Positions 2,909-50,376 of a stretch of 64,000 bases of DNA are shown in pieces. Numbering within the stretch: the stretch's first letter is position 1; each line of letters opens with the position of its first letter. Source of the DNA: Mobula hypostoma (lineage: Eukaryota); contig NC_086097.1 in the NCBI RefSeq assembly GCF_963921235.1, positions 124,374,001 to 124,438,000 on the forward strand. Direction: 5' to 3'. Under the pieces are notes generated by a model. The model saw only the letters and a program-made list of their open reading frames with translations, was not told where the DNA came from and did not search any database. The position numbers were made by a program, and so were the translations under genes.

Positions 2909-3109
2909 TCTAAATTCTTTGTGGGCCCTTTGCACCACCTATATCCCTCTCATCCCTGGGAGTGCTGTCCTGCACCATTGCAGCAATTAGTGGCAACATA
3001 AACGAGTTGGAACAATGGTGCTTGAATTGTGATATGCGTCCCCTAGACCTGGCTTGCCTGTGTTGAGCCATGCACAGACAACTCACTGTAAAAGATACCA
3101 AACCCTGGT

Positions 3110-3800
3110 TAGACTGCACTTGGAATATTGTGTTCAGTTCTGATCAATGCATTTTAGGGAGCAGGTAGAAGCTTTGGAGAGGGCGCAGGGGCGATTTACC
3201 AAGATACTGCCCAGAATAGGGAGTACGTCTGACGAGAATAGGTTGAGTGAGCTATGGCTTTTCTCTTCGAAGTGAAGGACGATGAGAGGTGACTTGGCAC
3301 CAGAGGGAGGCGGTGGGCAGGTAAGATGGTTAGAGCAGACTGGGGAATGAAAAAAGTGAGGGATTGGGGGGGGTTGAAAAATGTCAGAGATTAAATAAAT
3401 CAATGTTCATGCCGTCAGGTTGGAGGCTACCTAGATGGAATATGAGGTGTCATTTTGTACTTGAGATAATAAGAGGCATAGACTGAGTGGATAACCAGAC
3501 TTTTGCCAGGGTGGAAATGGGTAATACCAAAGTCACAACATTAAAGTGATTGGAGGAAAGTATAAGGGAGGGGGTTACTCGTGGTAAGTTATTTACACAG
3601 AGAGAGGTGGATATGTGGAACATGCTGCCAGAGATGGTGGTAAAGGCAGATACATTAGGAACATTTAAGAAACTCTTTGATAGGCACATGGATAACAAAA
3701 ACATAGAGGTCTATGAAGGAGGGAAGGGTTAGATTGATCTTAGAGTAGGATAAAAGGTCAGCACAACATCATGAGCTGGAAGGACTGTACTGTGTTGACT
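3110..3800 (+). mobile_element. CR1/HER1 3' fragment interrupted by a minus-strand Penelope fragment (~3296-3450)
   Basis: CR1 ORF2 end motifs (LFTQREVDMWNMLPE) flank a PLE-family sequence. Confidence 0.7.
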
Positions 3801-4164
3801 GGTCTTTGTCCTTTGTAACTACTAAAGCTTGCAGCACATCAAAAGGGAATGTCAGTGTTGATTCTAGTGTGGTATGTATAGCATGGAGAAACTCAACATT
3901 ATCCTGGAAGCTCACAATTCAATCTCCTGCTCTTTACCCATCGATCACAAATAGCAATCGAGTGACCCACTATCCTCTTTTAACACAAACAGCGTGTACA
4001 GTTATTTCTGGCCCACCTCCTACTGTGACGCATTGTTTATGAATTTTTGGCCAAGATTTTTGTGCTTAGGTCTCTTGAGCCCTCTGACTCAACGATGAGA
4101 GTCACAACTGATCCATAGCTGACACGGGTGGCCCTTTTGAATGCGGAGTCCTGGAGTCATATGT

Positions 4165-5665: not shown

Positions 5666-7764
5666 TATGACCTTTTTAAAAGCCTCCATCTTATCAACTG
5701 TCCCTTTGCCTAGAAATAGAGTTAATTACAGGGAACGACTACAACCAAGAGATAGGATAAGAGGCTCTGAGTGCCCAATGTGTTGGTGTGGGAGAGTGTT
5801 TTCCAGCATTAAAGGTTTACAAGTCCACCAAGCAAAGTTGAAGTGCTATTCCATCCCAGTGGATGAAGATGAGATTACTTCACCAAGCACAGATGATGTG
5901 CTCTTTTCAACCACTGATTCACAAGCCACAGCAATTCACTCTGGAGAGAGGCATCATACTCCAGGTCAGACGAGAGATAACCCAGGTCAGGTTTCAGACC
6001 ACAGTACCCAGGTAGGTCCTTCGCATGATGGTGGTGGTGAGGAGGTAGAGAAGAAGAGAAAGGTCAAGTGGCCAGCAATGGCAGATGAGAAGGCTTGGTG
6101 TGTATTTGATGAGGATATCAGTATGACATTGGAGAACACTCTCAGGGGAACATCAGAGAGAAAGTTGGAAGTGATGGGCAATATGATTTATGATGTTGGA
6201 AAGTACAGGTTTGGTTTGGTTGAGTTGAAGAAAGCAAAGCCTACACAGCAACCAAGCAGGCGCCAGAAGGAGATTAGTAGGTTGAGGAGAGAGCTTAGAT
6301 TGTTGAGACAGAGGTGGAAGGTAGCAACTGAGGGTGACAAGCCAGGGCTTGCTGATCTCCGAGAGTATTTTCAAATAAAGTTAGCAACACTCCGTCATGC
6401 AGAGTCACAACGTAAAAAGAGAAAGAAGAGAGAGAAGGCAAGAAAGTCGTTCTTTGAGAACCCTCATGAGTTCACAAAGAAACTGTTTGAACAAAGTAAG
6501 AGTGGGAAGCTTAACATCTCTCAACAAGAACTTGAGGATCACCTGGCAAGCACTTACACTAACGAACAGCGGGAGGCTCCTTTGCTTGACATTTCAGGGC
6601 TTGTGAAGCCTACCAAGCCAGGAGTGAAGTTCAATCTGTCAGAACCCAAACTGGCAGAAGTCGAACGGTTCATCAGAAAGGCAAGGTCAGGCTCAGTGCC
6701 AGGACCTAATGGAGTGCCATATAAGGTGTTTAAGAAGTGTGAACAGCTGAGGAAATACTTGTGGAGATTGTCAAAGGTGGTGTGGAGACAAGGTGTTGTT
6801 CCTCTGTCATGGAGTGAGGCTGAAGGAGAAAACATCCCGAAGAAAGAGAATTCTTCTACTTTGAATCAGTTCCGACCAATTTCACTCCTGAATATAGAGG
6901 GGAAGATTATGTTTGGCATTCTAGCAGAAAGAATATCTTCATTTGTGATAGAGAATGGATTGGTAAATACATCTGTGCAGAAGGCAGGAATACCAGGCTT
7001 CCCGGGATGCCTTGGACATTCTAGTATGATATGGCATACCATCCAGGAGTCAAAAAGGTTGAGAAGAAATCTGGCTGTAGTTTGGCTTGATCTGGCAAAT
7101 GCGTATGGTTCTGTTCCCCATGTCCTGATAGAGTTTGCGATGGCATTCCTAAGATTGCTAAGATAAGGAATTGCTACGGTAAGGAACTTTGTTATGCAAT
7201 ACTACAATGATTTCCGGATGAGGTTTTCCACTCAGCAGTTTACAACTAGGAGGCAGAGCTTGGATGTTGGAATCCCAATGGGATGTGCGATTTCACCCAT
7301 CCTTTTTGTGTTAGCCATGGAGGTCATTGTGAGGGCTGCAGAATCAGTGGGACCAGGTGTCGCACTTGATGGCGGAGGGGAGTTACCACCAATACGAGCG
7401 TTCATGGACGATCTCGCCCTTTCGGGTCCCAGCACGGAGGCAGTGGAAAGTGTACTAGCTAGACTCGAGGAGCTAATGGACTGGGGAAGAATGAAGTTCA
7501 AGACCAAGAAGTCAAGAAGCCTTGTTCTTAGGAGAGGAAAGCTGGTTGACTTTCATTTCACCCTTTGTGGAGAGGAGATTCCATCCATTCAGGAACAACC
7601 AGTTAAGAGCCTTGGGCAATGGTACACAGAGGAGCTGAGAGACACCAAGAGGGTTCAAGAGACAAGAAAGCAGATCAGCAGAGGTCTGATGTCTGTTGAC
7701 AAGTGTGGCTTGCCTGGCAAGTTGAAGTTGTGGTGCTTGCAGTACGGACTGATGCCATGGATAA

Positions 7765-8081: not shown

Positions 8082-9573
8082 TGCCACGGATAATGTGGCC
8101 ACTAACTGTCTATGAAGTGGCAATGTCCCATGTTGAGGCAATGGAACGGAAGATCAACAAGTATGTGAAGAAGTGGCTTGGAGTACCGAGCAGCCTCACC
8201 AATGTTGCAATCCACAGTAGCCAGACAAAGCTTACCATCCCAGTGCAATCCCTTGTTGAGGAGGTCAAGGTAGCCAAGGTAAGATCATTCTTGATGCTTC
8301 AAGACTCAAAAGACCCTGTCGTCAAGGACATCCAGCCGGATGTGAGATCGGGCAGGAAGTGGTCAGCCCGTGTAGCAGTTGATGAGGCAGAGTCTAGATT
8401 GAAGCACAAGGAGACGGTTGGGGCTATCCAGCTAGGCCGCCAGGGACTTGGGTGGACAACCCACAAGTGGTGGTCATCTTCTACAGGTAAGGAGCGCCGT
8501 GAGCTTGTAACACAAGAAATACGAGAGGTAGAAGAGGAGAAGAGGTTAGCTAAAACAGCTGGCCTGGCCATACGAGGGGCTTGGACCTGGTGGGAAAGTG
8601 TTGAACAATGACATCTATCTTGGAATGTTCTGTGGCAGATGGAACCGCTCTGCATTTCTTTTTTATCCGGAGCAGCGTATGATCTGCTCCAAACACCTGC
8701 AACCTCAGCACCTGGTATGAAGGTAAGACAGACAGGTGCTGCATGTGGCGAGAAGGGAACACTTCAACATATTTTGAGTGCATGCAGAGTCAATCTTTCC
8801 AGCGGCATGTACACTTGGAGACATAACAACGTTCTCAAAGTTGTAACAGAAGCGGTTGAGCAGAGAGTACTGCAACACAACTTATCTCATGCCCCATGCT
8901 GCACAGAACATCGCATATCATTTGTGAAAGAAGGCTCCAAGACAAGGGTGTACAGCGCAGGCTCACGATCAAGCATACTTTCTTCAGCCAATGATTGGTG
9001 TGTCAAGGCTGACCTGGATGGGAAAGGCAGTTTCCCGGAGCAAATAGCTTTCACCACATTGCGTCCAGATATAATCGTATGGTCTGACACCAGTAGGGAA
9101 GTGGTTATTGGTGAACTCACAGTCCCCTGGGAAGACAACATCGATGAAGCCCATGAGCACAAGTTAACCAAGTATGCAGAATTAAGATCAGAGTGCAGAG
9201 ACAGAGGGTGGAAGGTCTCATGCTATCCATTCGAAGTAGGCTGCCATGGGTTTATTGCGTTCACTTTCCAGAAGTGGCTGCGTGACCTTGGCTTCACTAG
9301 AAGAGAGATCAAGTCAACCAGCAGGGCTGTAGCTGAGGCAGCAGAGAAAGGATCAGCATGGGTGTGGAGCAAGTATGTCCAGAGGGGCAGAGAGTCAGAC
9401 AGTGTATACATACCTTGCAAACCCTTCAGTAGTTGCATAGACACCTGAAGGGTAGACTATCTGTTGGATGGAAGCAACCAACAACTCTGATAGAGGCAGA
9501 TGCCAAGTCTTAAAGTTCACCAGTGGGAAGGTGGTGCTTTAGCACTGCTGGCCCACTACCTTGAGGGAGACTT

Positions 9574-10726
9574 TTTTTTAATATAATTTTTATTGAGTTT
9601 TCAAAATGATTACATAGAATGATAATATCTACCCTTCCCCCCGATATATACCCCTATCTGAAAAAAAAGAAAAAAAGAGAAAAAGAAGGAAGAAAGAACT
9701 GCCTGGATATTGGAAAGTTTCCACATGCTCCATGGGATTCAAAATAAATTTAGTGTATTTATTTATTACTTTCCCCAAGGGACCAACATCTTTATCATCG
9801 GAGCAACTAAATATGCCATCCTATCTTTTGTAAATATGGGCACCAAATGTTCAAAAATGTATCATATTTATCTCTTAAATTATAAGTAATTTTTTCAAGT
9901 GGAATACAACTAGAAATTTCATTATTCCAACGATCCATACTTAAATACGAATCCAATTTCCAAGTAACTGCTATAGCCTTCTTAGCTACTGCCAATGCAA
10001 TTTTTATAAGTTCTTTCTGATATTTATTCAGTTTAAGTTTCGGTTTTATCCCTTCAATATCACCTAATAGAAATAATGTAGGGTTAAGTGGAAGTTGCGT
10101 TCCAGTAATTTGTTCCAATAAAACTCTTAAATTTATCCAAAAAGGTTGAATTTTGGAACAAGACCAAATAGAATGTAAGAAAGTACCAATTTCTTGATTA
10201 CACCGAAAGCATTGATCAGATAAGTTTGAATTTAATCTATTTATTTTTTGCGGTGTAATATATAATTGGTGTAAAAAATTCTATTGTACTAATCTAAGTC
10301 GAACGTTTATTGTATTTGTCATACTGTCAAGATACAGTCTTGACCAATTTGTTTCATCAATATTAATATTCAGATCTGTTTCCCATTGTTGTTTTGACTT
10401 TTGGATTCCTTGTTTAATTGTCTGTTTTCGTATCAAGTTATACATAAAAGAAATAAATTTTTTAATTTTTCCTTTTTGAATTAAAATTTCAATTTCATTG
10501 GGTTTTGGCAAAAACATTGTTTGACCCAGTTTGTCTTTTAAATAAGCCCTTAATTGAAGGTAACAAAAGAAAGTGTTATTTGATATTTTATATTTATTCA
10601 TTAATTGTTTAAATGACATCAATATACCTCATTCATAACAGTCTCCTATAGATCTCATCCCTTTTTGGTACCAATTATATAAAAGTCTGTTTTGAATCAA
10701 AGGTCTCCTTGCTAATAAAGATTTCT
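9574..10726 (-). mobile_element. 5'-truncated L1-clade LINE in the HERO 3' UTR
   Basis: ORF2 C-terminal knuckle CFRCNQEIGTFLHSIWSC and ORFs 9807-10118 and 10281-10622, with AATAAA and poly(A). TSD ttgagggagactt (9561-9573) / ttgagggagtctt (10727-10739). Confidence 0.85.
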
Positions 10727-10730
10727 TTGA

Positions 10731-10797
10731 GGGAGTCTTGATCATAAGTGGGCCAAAACTCCTGAAGACGGGAGGCAGATCAACTGATGATCCCATT
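10731..10797 (+). ncRNA. Permuted hammerhead-ribozyme-like motif in HERO-1 3' UTR (probably inactive)
   Basis: GGGAG-TC-TTGATC ... AGTGGGCC-AAAA-CTCCT ... GATCAA-CTGATGA. Stems I and III pair, and a stem II partner GGCCCACT lies at 9550-9557 across the L1 insertion. Confidence 0.65.
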
Positions 10798-11184
10798 GGT
10801 GATAGCACAGGACAGTTAACATCTTAGTCCAAGTGTATTTTCAATTCAATTCATATCAACCCCAGCTAAATCTTGCCTACTGCCTACCAGGTTGGCCTTG
10901 CTCCAGTTCAGGACTTTAACCTATGGACCTGTTCTATCTTTTTTCATAATGTTGCAGTCATCAAACTCAAGGTGGTCCTTAACTGTCACTTCAGTTACTT
11001 GGCCTACATTGTTCACCAAGAGGAGGTCCAGTATTGCTCATTCCCAAGGATTGCCTTGGATCCCATGCAAACTCCATCCCATCCAGGCCTCAACACCCTG
11101 GGTGAGAGAGAGTCACAAGGGTCAGTGCTGGTCCTGTAACTATTCACAATCTAGAATCACAGTGTAGAATCTAGAGGACAGAGT

Positions 11185-31944: not shown

Positions 31945-33730
31945 ACATAGAAACATAGAAAATAGGTGCAGGAGTAGGCCATTCGGCCCTTTGAGCCTGC
32001 ACCACCATTTATTATGATCATGGCTGATCATCCAACTCAGAACCCCGCCCCAGCCTTCCCTCCATACCCCCTGATCCCCGTAGCCACAAGGGCCATATCT
32101 AACTCCCTCTTAAATATAACCAATCAACTGGCCTCAACTGTTTCCTGTGGCAGAGAATTCCACAGATTCACCACTCTCTGTGTGAAGAAGTTTTTACTAA
32201 TCTCGGTCCTAAAAGGCTTCCCCTTTATCCTCAAACTGTGACCCCTCGTTCTGGACTTCCCCAACATCGGGAACAATCTTCCTGCATCTAGCCTGTCCAA
32301 TCCTTTTAGGATTTTATGTGTTTCAATCAGATCCCCCCTCAATCTTCTAAATTCCAACGAGTACAAGCCCAGTTCATCCAGTCTTTCTTCATATGAAAGC
32401 CATGCCATCCCAGGAATCAATCTGGTGAACCTTCTTTGTACTCCCTCTATGACAAGGATGTCTTTCCTCAGATTAGGGGACCAAAACTGCACACAATACT
32501 CCAGGTGTGGTCTCACCAAGGCCTTGTACAACTGCAGCAGTACCTCCCTGCTCCTGTACTCGAATCCTCTCGCTATAAATGCCAGCATACCATTCGCCTT
32601 TTTCACCGCCTGCTGTACCTGCATGCCCACTTTCAATGACTGGTGTATAATGACACCCAGGTCTCGTTGCACCTCCCCTTTTCCTAATCGGCCACCATTC
32701 AGATAATAACCTGTTTTCCTATTTTTGCCACCAAAGTGGATAACTTCACATTTATCTACATTAAATTGCATCTGCCATGAATTTGCCCACTCACCCAACC
32801 TATCCAAGTCACTCTGCATCCTCTTAGCATCCTCCTCACAGCTAACACTGCCACCCAGCTTTGTGTCATCCGCAAACTTGGAGATGATGCATTTAATTCC
32901 CTCATCCAAGTCATTAATATATATTGTAAACAACTGGGGTCCCAGCACTGAGCCCTGCGGTACCCCACTAGTCACCGCCTGCCATTCTGAAAAGGTCCCG
33001 TTTATTCCCACTCTTTGCTTCCTGTCTGCTAACCAATTCTCCATCCACATCAATACCTTACCCCCAATACCGTGTGCTTTAAGTTTGCACACTAATCTCC
33101 TGTGTGGGACCTTGTCAAAAGCCGTTTGAAAATCCAAATATACCACATCCACTGGTTCTCCCCTATCCACTCTACTAGTTACATCCTCAAAAAATTCTAT
33201 GAGATTCGTCAGACATGATTTTCCTTTCACAAATCCATGCTGACTTTGTCCGATCATTTCACCGCTTTCCAAATGTGCTGTTATCACATCTTTGATAACT
33301 GACTCCAGCAGTTTCCCCACCACCGACGTTAGGCTAACCGGTCTATAATTCCCCGGTTTCTCTCTCCCTCCTTTTTTAAAAAGTGGGGTTACATTAGCCA
33401 CCCTCCAATCCTCAGGAACTAGTCCAGAATCTAACGAGTTTTGAAAAATTATCACTAATGCATCCACTATTTCTTGGGCTACTTCCTTAAGCACTCTGGG
33501 ATGCAGACCATCTGGCCCTGGGGATTTATCTGCCTTCAATCCCTTCAATTTACCTAACACCACTTCCCTACTAACATGTATTTCGCTCAGTTCCTCCATC
33601 TCACTGGACCTTCTGTCCCTTACTATTTCTGGAAGATTATTTATGTCCTCCTTAGTGAAGACAGAACCAAAGTAATTATTCAATTGGTCTGCCATGTCCT
33701 TGCTCCCCATAATCAATTCACCTGTTTCTA
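31945..33730 (-). mobile_element. Young 5'-truncated CR1 LINE with an open 530-codon RT frame (32124-33716)
   Basis: Intact RT motifs (NYRPVSLTSVVGK, GVPQGSVLGP, KFADDTKLGG) and a (TTTCTATG)n tail. Near-identical to the copy at 63808-64000. Confidence 0.95.
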
Positions 33731-34010
33731 ACGATGTAGTGTTGTGGTTAGTGCAATGATATTACAGCTCCAGGCATTCAGAGGAGTTCAATTCCAGCAC
33801 TGTCTGTAAAGATTGTCTTACGTTCTCCTTGTGACAGTGTGGGATTCCTCCAGATGCACCGGTCTCGTCCCACAGTCCAAAGACGTACCGTTAATTGGTC
33901 ATTGTAATTTGTCCTGTGTTAGGCTGGGGCTAAACAGGCAGATGGCTGGGTGGTGCAGCTTGTTGGGCTGGAGGGGTCTGTTCCATGCTGTATCTCTAGA
34001 TAAATATATC
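33731..34010 (+). mobile_element. V-domain SINE (HE1-like)
   Basis: tRNA-like head with gagttcaattcc and V core tcccacagtccaaagacgtacc. Confidence 0.7.
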
Positions 34011-43115: not shown

Positions 43116-44045
43116 CCAAGGTGAAACTTTCTGTGGTAAATGGAACATGCAATTAAGTGCAACCCAGAAAATTCCCGTAATAGTTGACTGGGCGAAACAA
43201 AGAGAAGGACAGCATGTATCGACTTGCAAGCACCAAACGACTTGTCCTGCATCCTGATCTGTTGAATCTAGAGTAGATTTCTCCTGAATTCACGGCAAGT
43301 TAAACTAAAACAGCAGGCATTGTTACCATACTGGAGGAATTCAGCTGGTTGAGCAGTAGTTGAGGAGGGGAAAGGAATTATTAATATTTCATGTCAAAAA
43401 TCCTGAAACAGTTCTGAGAGAGAGGGGAAGGGAGTGGTGAGTCAGCAACTCAGCAGGACAGGCAGCATCTGTGGAAGGGCATAAGATGCCAATGTTCTGA
43501 ACAGAGACCCTATACCAGACCTGATGAAGAGTCTTGGCCCAGAATGTCTACTCTGTATTCCATCATCTGCAGAATCTCTTGTGTTTGTGGTGAGACAGGG
43601 GTCAGAAGGTGATTGGAGGGCTGAGGAACAGTGAGGGATCACAGGCAGATGGAATGAGTTGGAAATTCCAGAGGGAATTTGTAACAGTCAGCATGGCTTT
43701 GTGTGGGGCAGGCTATGCCCTACTAACTAGGCTGAGTTTTTGAGGTGACAGGTGATCAATGAAGGTTGAGCTATGGGATGTTATCATATGGATTCTAGTA
43801 AGGCTTTTAATGGGTTATGGGGAGAAGGCAGGAGAATGGGGTTGAGGGGGATAATAAATCAGCCACGATGGAAAGGTGGAGCAGTCTCGACAGGAGCAGA
43901 ATTAGGCCATTCAGCCCAAGTCCTATGGTCAACCAGGTAGAGATGGGGGAGAGGGGAGTTACAGTACAGAGGCAGGTGTATGATAGGCAGAGGCTGACAA
44001 ACTAAAAGGCAGGTGGAGGGAGGGGAGGGTGAAGGTGGTCAGCTA

Positions 44046-46605: not shown

Positions 46606-46664
46606 AAAAATCTTTAAACAGTAACTATGTATCTATTCAAGTTCTTATCTAATCTTATCTGTAA

Positions 46665-48500
46665 CCCGCGGCCCGACGCTGGAGTTGGATATTGTTCAGC
46701 TGGCTCTAAGAGAGTTCATGGACAACATCACTATAACGACTGTGTCACATGTCCAAGCAAGACATGTAGCCACTTGGGCGAGGATGTCCTTCAAGGCCAA
46801 GAAGTCCAGGTGCATGGTGATCAGAAAGGGCAAAGTTACTAGCAAGTTTAGTCTCCAAGTTCAGGGTGAGGTCATCCCTTCCATCGAAGATAACCCGATA
46901 AAATGCTTGGGGAAGTGGTTAATGTGTCACTAACAGATGGGGCGAATGTCACCAATGCTGTGAAGCAGATAGACGAATTGCTGAAGAAGATCGACAAATC
47001 CGGACTTCCCGGTAAATTCAAGACCTGGCTGTACCAGTACGGCCTTCTGCCCAGGCTTCTCTGGCTCTTCACACTTTATGAGCTCCCCATGACTGCCGTA
47101 CAGGGCATCGAGAGAAAAACCAACAAGCACCTGCAGAGATGGTTGGGAGTTCCCCCAAGCTTCTCTTCAGTGGGTCTCTATATTCGATCTGGGCAACTGC
47201 AGCTTCCCCTGTCGTCTGTTGTGGAGGAATTCAAGGTGGCAAAATGCAGAGCCTTATTAAGCTTGAGAGATTCCATTGACATCTTGGTAAAGCAAGCAGG
47301 TGTTACAACCAGATCTGGGCACAAGTGGGCAGCCAACGCAGCTGTGGAGCAGGCAGTGTGTTCTCTGAAGCTGTGAGATATCATCGGCAACCCCTGTGTC
47401 GAGTGGCAAGGCCTCGGCTCAGTTCACTTCCAGCAGTAGGGAAACGCAAGCATAAGGAACAGGCGAGACATGGTACAGGCAGAAGTACGGATCCGTGAGG
47501 AAGAGAAGTGGATGTCAAAGGCAGTGGAACAAGGGTCCCAGGGTGCCTGGACAAAATGGGATCTGCCTAAGCACCAGATCTCATGGGCAGAGTTATGGAG
47601 ACTGGAGCCCTTCCATATTTCCTTCCTCTTGCGATCTGTGTATGACACCCTTCCTTCACCATTACATCTGTACACATGGGGGATGAGAGAGGACCCAAAT
47701 TGTAAGCTCTGTGGTCAAAAGGGGACACTGGCTGATATACTGTCCGGGTGTAAAACAGCTCTAACTCAAGGATGGTATAGATGGCGCCATGATAAGGTGC
47801 TTCTGGCTCTTGCTGACACACTAGAGCAGGAGAGATGCAAGAGGAGGACGGCTGACACAGATTTGAGGAAGGCCACCACCTTCATCAAAGAGGGAGCCAG
47901 GCCTTTCGTAACCAAACAACCAAAGCCCAATCTGCTGCTAACGGCCAGGTCCTGGGAGATGAGGGTCGATGTGGGAAGGAGGCTGCAGTTCCCGGATGTT
48001 GTGCACACAACCCTATGCCCGGACATTGTACTGTGGTCAACCGAAGACAAGAAAATAATTCTGGTTGAGCTGACTGTGCTGTGAGAGGAGGGATGGGAAG
48101 AGGCCCACGAGAGAAAGGCCTTGAAGTACCAGCTCTTAGTGCAGGAGTGTAAAGACAAGGGATGGCAGGCATGGTTGTTCCCTGTGGAGATCGGCTGCAG
48201 AGGTTCCCCAGCCAAATCAGCATGGCGGTTGTTGTCAGATCTGGGCCTGGACGAAAGGAACAAAAAACAAGCAGCTCGTAGGATGGGGGAAGAGGCAGAA
48301 CGAGCCTCTTGTTGGATTTGGAGTAGGCAAGAGGAGGGGAGCTGGAAGACAGGAGCAGATGGGCAGTGATTTGGCCACCACTGCCGGCCCATCAACTGGA
48401 GGGTGTCATGGTTAACGGTCAAAACACTCGGTGAAGGTTGGGAACCACCTGATGACATCTGCTCCTGGCTGAAGGCTACAGTTACCTTTTAAGGTAACTG
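46665..48500 (+). mobile_element. Second, divergent 5'-truncated HERO-clade retrotransposon
   Basis: FMDNITITT, SGLPGKFKTWLYQYGLLPRLLW, CKLCGQKGTLADILSGC..WRHD, PDIVLWS..ELTVL, KY..GWQAWLFPVEIGCRG; stop at 48367-48369. Confidence 0.9.
48386..48461 (+). ncRNA. Permuted hammerhead-ribozyme-like motif in HERO-2 3' UTR (probably inactive)
   Basis: GGCC ... GGGTG-TC-ATGGTT ... GGTC-AAAA-CACTC ... AACCAC-CTGATGA; same architecture as 10731-10797 with covarying stems. Confidence 0.65.
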
Positions 48501-50376
48501 GAGAATGCACCCTAACAGGTGTATGTAACAAACAAGTAGAGAACTAAAGCTGATGGAGTTATGTTTCTCATAAAAGAAAAATTTTTACCAAACACTAATA
48601 AAGTCTAAAAGAGCTTCTGTAACAATAGCAAAAAGTCCAAGCCTTACTTCTCTTCAGTACCTACACTGCTGTATTAATGAGAACTTCATCAATGACTCGG
48701 CTGCTTCAATACAAGGACAAGCAAAAACAGACCAGCTGATTTTCATTTGACTGTCCTCTATCTAGTGGAGATATTCATTGGTGCATTAAAGTATTACAGA
48801 CTCATCGACTTCAGCCATCTTATGACAACAAATTTCTAAAACAACTCTGATATGGGCAGTCCCAAGCTCGGCTGTGAAAGGAGAAAGGCTGGGCATGAGG
48901 CTAGCAACTCCATCCCGTAGAAACCCAGTGCTACAGAAATGCCAACAGAGGCTCCAAAGACCTCATCCCTGGCAGAGGAAAGATCTACGCCTACATAATG
49001 TATGAAGTTGTGTGGTGGAAGCGGAGGCCGCAGGCCGATCAACTTTTGGCCCAGGACAGAGGACTCTGGTGAGCTGCAAAGGCCCCAGAAAAAGAGGGGG
49101 TGATGAGAGAGAAGAAAATGCTTTGACCCTTGTCCTTGCCTCGCATTTGCTCACCTCTTCATTGTTTGCAGTGATCATTTACCATAATTATCATTAACCG
49201 TAAAAATGTTATTAATAAAGTATTTAGTTGTATTCCTTGTTTTGTTAACCACCAGAAAGCAGTCACTCGCCCTCTTAAACTGGAAGTTTTATGCTTTGGA
49301 GTTACTAAACAACAGTGGTGAAGATTAAGTTTTAAACGAACCCGAGACAACTACCTATCTGTTGAAGCACAGTGAGATGTTAGAGTTAATAAAAAAGCAC
49401 AGCAAGAAACGATTGAGTCAAAAAAAAGCAAAGCATGGTCGGGTTAAAAAAAGCAGATAACAGACACATTTATAGACATATAAACAGTGAATACTGAGTA
49501 CTGTATGATAATCATAAATAAAAAGCAGCAAAAATGGCTGGCTGCATCAGGAAGATCGACACACTTGATTGCACAGGGTATAACTGAATATTGTATATTG
49601 TGCAAATTAAGCAGTATTTTAAGGCAAATGGAACAGCTGATGAGAAGCAAGAGCCAGTTTTACTGACTGCGTTAGGTGGACGAGCATACAGTTTGCTTCA
49701 AAGTTTGACTGTTCCAACCAAACCAGCTGAAATTAGCTTTGCTGATATCGTGAAAGTAATGCAGGAACATTTAGAACCGAAACCAGTGTTAATTGCAGGA
49801 TGATGTAGGTTTCATAGGTGGAATCAAAAGGAGGGGGTGTCTATTTCAGCGTATGTGGCTGAATTGAAGCTGTCCAAGCATTATCAATTCAGTGATGGGC
49901 ATAACAATGCACTGAGAAGCTGTTTAGTTTGTGGAGTCTTTCAAGAAAGCATTCAAAAATGGCTTGAAAGGACAGTTGAAATAGGTCTATCGATAGAAAC
50001 AGCAGACAGGGATGCATGTGAGATGCAGTCAGGAAGGAATTTACTATGAACAAAATTGCAACGTCTAAACAGAAATGGGCCTGGTCGAACAAACTGTGTT
50101 ACCGTTGTGGCAAGGGCTCTGATACACCAGACCAATATAGGTCTAAGGGTGAAACTTTGTAGAAAATGCAATGAAGTAGGGCAGATAAAAAGAGCATGTC
50201 AATCAGACAAAAATAAATGAGAAGGGAAAAGAAAAAGATTAAAAAAAAGTCAAGTTGCAGTTTCAAAAGGAGCACTAATCTGCATGCTGTTGGTGAAAAA
50301 TATGATAATGATGAAAGTAATACAGGACTGAGTAGCCTTGAGACTTACAATGTGAAAACTAACAACAGACAAGCAA

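Follow-up and report, generated by a model that had tools for sequence, protein, structure and literature searches.

A Split-core Hammerhead-type Fold in the 3' Tails of HERO Retrotransposons with Predicted Self-cleavage

RESULTS

A Hammerhead-type Domain in the HERO-2 Tail

The 3' tail of a HERO-2 retrotransposon copy in the window, a 64,000-nucleotide stretch of Mobula hypostoma DNA (contig NC_086097.1, positions 124,374,001 to 124,438,000), is best explained, with somewhat better than even confidence, as a decayed hammerhead-type fold whose intact relatives are predicted to self-cleave after C17 (48407). That the tails of HERO elements carry a selected hammerhead-type fold is close to certain, and the predicted self-cleavage of intact copies is probable. 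The initial annotation, from which the name HERO is taken, had proposed a non-circularly permuted hammerhead core at this site, and that reading is supported by a core kept in four families, by covarying stems, and by a descriptor search free of decoy sites. The HERO-2 copy of the window occupies 46660..48531 (+) and is 5'-truncated, homology to longer copies beginning at 46660. On re-reading the window letters, the four pieces reported for it, GGCC (48386-48389), GGGTG-TC-ATGGTT (48401-48413), GGTC-AAAA-CACTC (48417-48429), and AACCAC-CTGATGA (48443-48455), are exact to the base.

The whole HERO-2 domain (48352-48465) is composed of six helices with the parts arranged in the order P1, P2, IIa, linker, III-GUC-I, 2-4 bases, IIb-GAAA-III, linker, I-CUGAUGA, and the returning strand of P1 (Table 1). 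Three of the helices lie beyond those of the initial annotation, namely the closing helix P1, the hairpin P2, and a helix formed by linkers L1 and L3 (termed L1:L3) that joins the outer ends of stems I and II. HERO-1 has counterparts of all three with quite different sequence (P1 CACCAGTGGGA/TCCCACTGGTG, an 8-pair hairpin, and CCACC/GGTGG).

The same contig also carries another HERO-1 copy together with two additional families, termed H3 and H4, in which the order of parts is unchanged. First-look candidates number from 827 to at least 3,960 per family across the four families, with thousands each for H3 and H4. P1 is paired in all four despite its differing sequence, a P2-type hairpin occupies the same place in all four, and the linker from stem I to stem II measures 2-4 bases throughout. 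The L1:L3 helix is likewise in the same place with five pairs, the sequences besides that of HERO-2 being CCACC/GGTGG, CCTGG/CCAGG, and CCCTC/GAGGG. The core stems of H3 are TGATGTT/AACATCA (stem I), GGGTC/GACCC (stem II), and GGGTG/CACCC or GGCTG/CAGCC (stem III), and those of H4 are GTGGGC/GCCCAC, GTTGA/TCAAC, and GACG/CGTC, respectively. The H3 core reads CUGAAGA and GUA and departs from the others solely at the two sites left variable by the hammerhead consensus. In H4 (L164:1650-1680), two bases separate the core CCTGATGAC from a degenerate repeat, CGATGAC, that comes after it, and P1 has shrunk to GGGG/CCCC, accompanied by a second, outer helix (GGGTA/TACCC).

Covariation of the Helices and Invariance of the Core

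Four natural, majority-like copies with an intact core (L004:1556-1669, minus strand; L037:1550-1666, minus; L219:2332-2447, plus; and L164:1547-1680, plus) serve as representatives for the helix comparison. These were aligned segment by segment by script, because the MAFFT alignment of seven domains placed the helices of the families out of register; segment borders were drawn by eye, and for the L1:L3 helix the best-matching register was adopted, a choice that favors pairing. All 120 of the 120 pairs proposed in P1, stem II, the linker helix, stem III, and stem I are canonical in these representatives, compared with 33-43% when the 3' partner is slid by 1-3 bases. Two-sided changes that keep the pair occur at 6/6 positions in stem I, 4/5 in stem II, 3/4 in stem III, 4/5 in the linker helix, and 4/4 in P1. 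The covariation between HERO-1 and HERO-2 noted in the window is real and extends to H3 and H4, with stem I, stem II, and stem III directly flanking the core and covarying in four families. Only two pairs never change, G10.1-C11.1 and C15.2-G16.2, and both are also conserved in classical hammerheads. The four families all keep the eleven invariant letters and a non-G at position 17, while the helix sequences differ.

Covariation is also seen inside a single family. A stem III pair of H3, followed through 37 distinct copies (for example L142:1534-1649, L132:1018-1133, and L219:2332-2447), is U.C in 28, G-C in 5, C-G in 3, and U.U in 1, the exchange of G-C for C-G being a full compensatory swap. 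Nested minimum free energy folds recover P1 and P2 in three of the four families, with z-scores of -2.2, -3.9, and -3.7 (H4, -0.6).

A descriptor consisting of the core letters, at least 5 pairs in stem I, and at least 4 pairs in stem III was scanned over both strands. It finds 105 sites in 1.85 Mb of genomic loci, all of them in HERO-like tails of the four families, with none in a reversed decoy of equal size or in the window when reversed. Neither window copy satisfies the descriptor, the only causes being the AAAA that both have at the GAAA site and the interruption of the HERO-1 copy. These results bear on the explanation that short motifs came together by chance in a 3' untranslated region (UTR) rich in A and G. 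Such an assembly would agree with the occurrence of CTGATGA alone in the window at chance frequency (14 found versus 15.3 expected) and with the Rfam search, in which no family passes the threshold in the window and no hammerhead model matches to E = 10 in the window or in four intact copies. The Rfam result is not counted against the fold because the models assume classical wiring. Chance assembly is refuted by the 105 real sites against 0 in the decoy together with covarying helices around an invariant core in four families, and we give it practically no credence.

Family State of the Core Letters

All family counts come from one 3.48-Gb genome, that of M. hypostoma. The HERO-2 tail occurs there in many copies, with at least 1,417 first-look candidates (40 scored), and the sample analyzed consists of 45 distinct copies. 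Position 48421 is G, giving CGAAAC, in 37 of these 45, the window copy being one of seven with A at G12. Position 48408 is G in 34/45 (A in the window), which gives stem I as GTGGTT/AACCAC, and 48402 is A in about nine of ten copies (G in the window), which gives a perfect stem III, GAGTG/CACTC. A G at 48416 in the family state gives stem II as GGCCC/GGGTC, and the CTGATGA core is invariant in 45/45. The two repairs predicted from the window letters alone, G48421 and G48408, are accordingly the state of most HERO-2 copies.

G12 is present in 37/45 HERO-2 and 20/30 HERO-1 copies and in 30/30 and 28/30 copies of the two further families, and all 11 invariant hammerhead letters occur together in 35/45, 18/30, 30/30, and 27/30 copies of the four families. 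The complete set of core letters (C3-A9, G12-A15.1, U16.1, and H17) is present in the family state of all four; both window copies have A at G12. These two copies are dead, as had been anticipated from their apparent CpG decay, while G12 is intact in most other copies. Contigs assembled from four public runs, labeled as four organisms, carry G48421, G48408, and A48402 in most or all of their depth. G at 48421 accounts for all contig depth in runs X1 and X4, nearly all in X3, and about four tenths in X9. One deep contig, 17% diverged and with a broken CUGAUGA, is most simply one old copy within a longer transcript, and no inference is drawn from it.

Topology of the Fold and Comparison with Known Ribozymes

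The strands of the HERO domain run in the order IIa, III-UH-I, II-GAAA-III, I-CUGANGA with all stems crossing, an order that differs from classical types I, II, and III, in which the stems are nested and the strands follow a circular permutation of CUGANGA-II-GAAA-III-NUH-I. The closest arrangement is type SGC of Eckert et al. (2023; PMC10085705), who treat the hammerhead as three blocks, S, G, and C, assumed to be uninterruptible, and who validated type SGC as cleaving. Stems I and II of type SGC are connected by a linker of about 3 bases ("typically three"), and their remaining sides are bridged by an additional helix (PMC10085705). As compared with the HRIMA-1 motif and variants described there, the HERO fold has the same S-G-C order of cleavage site, GAAA, and CUGANGA, a similarly short linker (2-4 bases) with a helix that links the remaining sides of stems I and II, three mutually crossing core stems forming pseudoknots, and every conserved core letter the same.

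The substantial difference is in block C, which in HERO is split between A9 and G10.1 with stem IIa on the 5' side and CUGAUGA on the 3' side. The blocks are interrupted in all four families, P1 following CUGAUGA and the stem II strand lying 59 bases upstream of C3, and the HERO domain has two extra helices, P1 and P2, at the split. Because block C is split, the HERO fold is not simply type SGC. The idea that the motif belongs to a published permuted family holds for the block order of type SGC (PMC10085705) and fails for the split block and the upstream position of stem IIa. Formally, the HERO wiring corresponds to type SGC with its ends joined and then reopened between A9 and G10.1. P1, P2, stem II, and the sheared G12.A9/A13.G8 stack would come together at a four-way junction, and since no bases are left over between them, such a junction could hold A9 stacked on G10.1 without a covalent bond.

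The hosts are also different. The type SGC examples are metatranscriptome RNAs found beside hairpin ribozymes (presumed circular agents), no eukaryotic retrotransposon host being mentioned in the main text and one supplementary file (PMC10085705), whereas the HERO domains belong to the tails of retrotransposons that code for protein, within an animal genome of 3.5 Gb. Type SGC has been shown to cleave, whereas cleavage by the HERO fold is a prediction. A literature search, with subscription-only literature outside it, found no paper combining a hammerhead with HERO or with long interspersed nuclear elements (LINEs) of the restriction-like endonuclease type, and a search for a reopening of type SGC between A9 and G10.1 returned no description. 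The accessible part of a 2026 review of R2 diversity names Hero once and hammerheads never.

Hammerheads are carried by other retroelements, the Penelope-like elements and the retrozymes of animals or plants (Cervera and de la Pena 2014, PMC4209133; Cervera and de la Pena 2020, PMC7229834; Li et al. 2026, preprint 10.64898/2026.07.22.740005). These elements resemble HERO in bearing the ribozyme within a retroelement and in forming partial head-to-tail insertions, and they are proposed to follow a cycle in which RNA is cut, circularized, and reverse-transcribed. Unlike HERO, their hammerheads are classical type I or III and are found by standard models, and their endonuclease is of the GIY-YIG type or is absent. 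HERO appears to encode a reverse transcriptase and, after it, a PD..E..K motif of the restriction-like endonuclease kind, as in the R2 group, and its ribozyme wiring differs from that of these elements. The HERO clade of the R2 group is characterized by a reverse transcriptase with a C-terminal zinc knuckle and PD-(D/E)XK endonuclease and is delimited by reverse-transcriptase phylogeny. The HERO-1 open reading frame (ORF) gives RVT_1 matches and HERO-2 a weak zf-RVT match; within the C-terminal 278 residues, inspection by eye picks out the PD..E..K motif together with a CCHC-like stretch.

Eickbush and Eickbush in 2010 and Ruminski et al. in 2011 are said to have described ribozymes resembling that of hepatitis delta virus (HDV) at the 5' end of R2 and other elements lacking long terminal repeats. 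The HERO domain is similar in being a self-cleaving RNA, as predicted, built into an R2-group element. It differs in belonging to another ribozyme class, in being placed in the 3' UTR of each unit, and in that the ends of HERO copies do not mark the cut as the usual 5' end of the template.

Tail-to-Head Joints and Copy Ends

Copies chosen through a match to the initial 150 bases of the 5' UTR (30 each for HERO-2, H3, and HERO-1) are in most cases directly preceded by a piece of their own tail sequence. This is so in 28 of 30 HERO-2 copies (27 by BLAST and 1 by eye, two of them probably representing one duplicated locus), and BLAST identifies the joint in 27/30 H3 and 28/30 HERO-1 copies, a total of 83/90 over three families; the two remaining HERO-1 copies still have 10-17 bases of tail. 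The joints are identical in 26/27 H3 copies, and the upstream tail pieces vary in length from 14 to more than 1,500 bases. HERO sequence follows the tail in only 1 of the 45 HERO-2 tails, and on this ground the joints are not attributed to new copies nesting in older tails. For H4, no tail-to-head joint is found within 1.5 kb upstream in 29 loci. The seamless joints therefore indicate a reverse-transcription template that is continuous from tail into head, as in a circle or concatemer, so that the "5' UTR start" is not a genuine 5' terminus of the RNA.

HERO-2 copies end at ...TGTAACAAG, often with extra TAACAAG-like repeats, and then pass into unrelated flanks. The predicted cut is located 124 bases before this element end. 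With the cut at this distance, the view that a self-cleaving element defines the RNA 3' region is not favored by the copies, which point instead to processing of RNA that runs from tail into head. Variable short repeats are present at the element 3' ends of both window families, TAACAAG-like in HERO-2 (window 48524-48540 and the 45 tails) and AATTC in HERO-1 (window 10843-10853), which suggests slippage or microhomology priming at the reverse-transcription start.

At the predicted cut itself, 59 of the 83 upstream pieces traverse the site without any indel, and no indel is found there in the 45 HERO-2 tails; none of 29 plain HERO-2 tails starts at the cut. The lack of a pile-up of starts and of indels therefore means that the template was either uncleaved or precisely rejoined. 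A modest cluster of copy starts occurs further downstream at the border of CUGANGA and P1 (+38 to +53 from the cut), with 9/83 copies in three families (L100-L129 and L204-L263), and may give a slight hint of reverse transcriptase stalling at the folded core. Some loci contain two complete ribozyme domains 0.87-1.3 kb apart with a 5' UTR start between them (L219:1359-1474 and 2332-2447; L233; L240-L242), and these look like short, internally deleted, retrozyme-like units of H3 and HERO-1.

Proposed Role and Alternative Explanations

A tentative role for the domain, which we hold with less than even confidence, is the making of unit-length circular RNA for reverse transcription. The ribozyme would cut longer-than-unit transcripts to unit length, the cut ends would rejoin into a circle through the reverse reaction or a host ligase, and reverse transcription would go round the circle more than once, in line with proposals for retrozymes and Penelope-like elements. 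A unit would measure about 3.7-4.2 kb, or about 1 kb in the case of the short units. Cutting, circularization, and multi-turn copying would explain the partial head-to-tail repeat insertions. The topology and the role combine into a broader proposal that is possible but somewhat short of an even chance, namely that HERO has a natural topology beyond the six block orders regarded as possible, with a core split at A9/G10.1 and held by a four-way junction, that would provide autonomous vertebrate R2-group LINEs with a viroid- or retrozyme-like cut-circle-copy step.

Several observations weigh against a cleaving, circle-forming domain. Copy starts coincide with the predicted cut in only 2/83 cases, both in HERO-2 (L111 and L119), with 0/28 in HERO-1 and 0/27 in H3. 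The commonest sampled H3 subfamily has the U.C mismatch in the middle of stem III (28/37 copies), so amplification does not require a perfect fold. In H4, P1 has only 4 clean pairs and the fold z-score is the -0.6 given above. At locus L203, the upstream tail (3105-3985) has the stem III mismatch and the element's own tail (6830-7711) has the C-G variant, which speaks against a circle because two turns around one circle would not give that difference. The two L203 tails share 96.6% identity compared with 95.8-96.9% for random copies, and three private variants are common to both, yet their subfamily sites differ; the locus looks like a recombinant or two-template product. In addition, a literature search did not find demonstrated cleavage by a hammerhead whose chain is broken between A9 and G10.1.

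Part of this evidence would suit a fold selected as a pseudoknotted 3' UTR bound by the element's own reverse transcriptase, as in R2, with no cleavage in vivo and the core letters kept for shape. The 2/83 copy ends at the cut amount to no excess, the 59/83 upstream tails and all first-pass tails cross the cut site without indels, and the H3 majority tolerates the stem III mismatch. There is also a precedent in the reported binding of a pseudoknotted 3' UTR by the R2 protein (PMC12222951). Binding alone leaves unexplained why exactly the catalytic letters (G12, G8, G5, C3, and a non-G at 17) are invariant while nearly every helix position has changed, and the reverse-transcription start site is at least 66 bases downstream of the domain, at a separate hairpin. 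We regard binding without cleavage as unlikely.

The second alternative is 5' processing in the manner of the R2 HDV-like ribozyme, in which the upstream-tail copy frees the RNA from a read-through transcript, a linear template is copied, and tandem masters or jumping of the reverse transcriptase between templates give rise to the joints. In the tail-to-head arrangement the HERO hammerhead is about 125 bases upstream of the 5' UTR and could free a 5' end. The first base of L111 and of L119 is nucleotide 1.1 itself, masters preceded by a tail occur in three families, and the L203 tails differ at subfamily sites as two templates or separately inherited tails would. A linear RNA released by the cut predicts a strong pile-up of full-length copies at 1.1; the 2/83 observed, against about 0.6 expected per 3-base bin, is about the local density. 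Template jumping predicts many copies that terminate at a true RNA 5' end and untidy joints, and the joint is instead seamless, with only 2-3 of 30 copies per family lacking a BLAST-detectable tail and the two of HERO-1 retaining 10-17 tail bases. Linear 5' processing is considered rather improbable, a step below binding alone.

The Interrupted HERO-1 Copy and Other Features of the Window

The HERO-1 copy of the window had been described as having the same layout as HERO-2. All of its pieces are present, though not contiguous, as a 1,157-base insertion (9570-10726) separates stem III from the U-C of the cleavage triplet. Because the insertion splits the window copy, the contiguous HERO-1 layout is seen only in other copies of the family, 29 of which are without the insertion. 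It is flanked by a 9-base target duplication, TTGAGGGAG, at 9561-9569 and 10727-10735, and is probably a poly(A) retroposon in antisense, since its start is a T run.

No upstream tail copy is found in the 64-kb window, in which both HERO copies are 5'-truncated or interrupted. A CTGATGA at 43521 was considered as a tail copy ahead of HERO-2 and rejected, its sequence being unrelated. An antisense open frame of 240 codons from stop to stop (47766-48488, minus strand) crosses the HERO-2 end and the ribozyme domain and may be due to chance, and a 545-codon open frame is present elsewhere in the window (32124-33761, minus strand).

Table 1. Parts of the HERO-2 and HERO-1 domains, in window coordinates
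Feature	Position	Strand	Remarks
HERO-2 P1, 5' strand (GGAGCAGATG)	48352..48361	+	inside last ORF codons; perfect 10-pair complement of 48456-48465
HERO-2 P2 hairpin, GGCAGTG/CACTGCC	48362..48385	+	7 pairs, 10-base loop; includes stop codon (TGA, 48367-48369); abuts G10.1
HERO-2 stem II, 5' strand, 10.1-10.5, GGCCC	48386..48390	+	partner 48416-48420, GGGTC in most copies, CGGTC in window
HERO-2 linker L1	48391..48400	+	48392-48396 is joining-helix strand (CCAAC in family, TCAAC in window); partner GTTGG, 48437-48441
HERO-2 stem III, 3' strand, 16.6-16.2, then U16.1 (48406) and C17 (48407)	48401..48407	+	predicted cut 48407/48408
HERO-2 stem I, 5' strand, 1.1-1.6	48408..48413	+	family helix GTGGTT/AACCAC, perfect 6 pairs
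HERO-2 2-base linker (48414-48415) and stem II, 3' strand (48416-48420)	48414..48420	+	
HERO-2 G12-A13-A14-A15.1	48421..48424	+	AAAA in window; G12 lost at a CpG
HERO-2 stem III, 5' strand, 15.2-15.6, CACTC	48425..48429	+	
HERO-2 linker L3	48430..48442	+	GTTGG, 48437-48441, partner of L1
HERO-2 stem I, 3' strand, AACCAC, then C3-A9, CTGATGA (48449-48455)	48443..48455	+	
HERO-2 P1, 3' strand (CATCTGCTCC)	48456..48465	+	starts directly after A9
HERO-2 remainder of tail	48466..48531	+	to reverse-transcription start site (...TGTAACAAG); hairpin 48479-48500
HERO-1 first half	9518..9569	+	P1 5' strand 9518-9528; P2 9530-9549; stem IIa 9550-9556; L1 9557-9564; stem III strand 9565-9569
Insertion (9570-10726) and second target-duplication copy (10727-10735)	9570..10735	.	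splits HERO-1 motif
HERO-1 second half	10736..10853	+	U-C17 10736-10737; stem I 10738-10743; L2 10744-10747; stem IIb 10748-10754; AAAA 10755-10758; stem III 10759-10763; L3 10764-10777; stem I 10778-10783; CTGATGA 10784-10790; P1 3' strand 10791-10801; tail to ~10853

DISCUSSION

Should the intact HERO copies not cleave, their tails would still contain a well-supported, six-helix, doubly pseudoknotted 3' UTR domain in which a catalytic fold is kept for another use. Should they cleave, the rule that the three hammerhead blocks cannot be interrupted would be wrong, and descriptor and covariance searches built on uninterrupted blocks would have missed an abundant class. Cleavage would also tie a ribozyme other than the HDV-like type to the R2 group of LINEs, a group under current development as gene-insertion tools. 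Through the tail-to-head copies, the idea of LINE RNA in circular or concatemeric form would become open to test, which would link autonomous LINEs to the retrozymes and Penelope-like elements.

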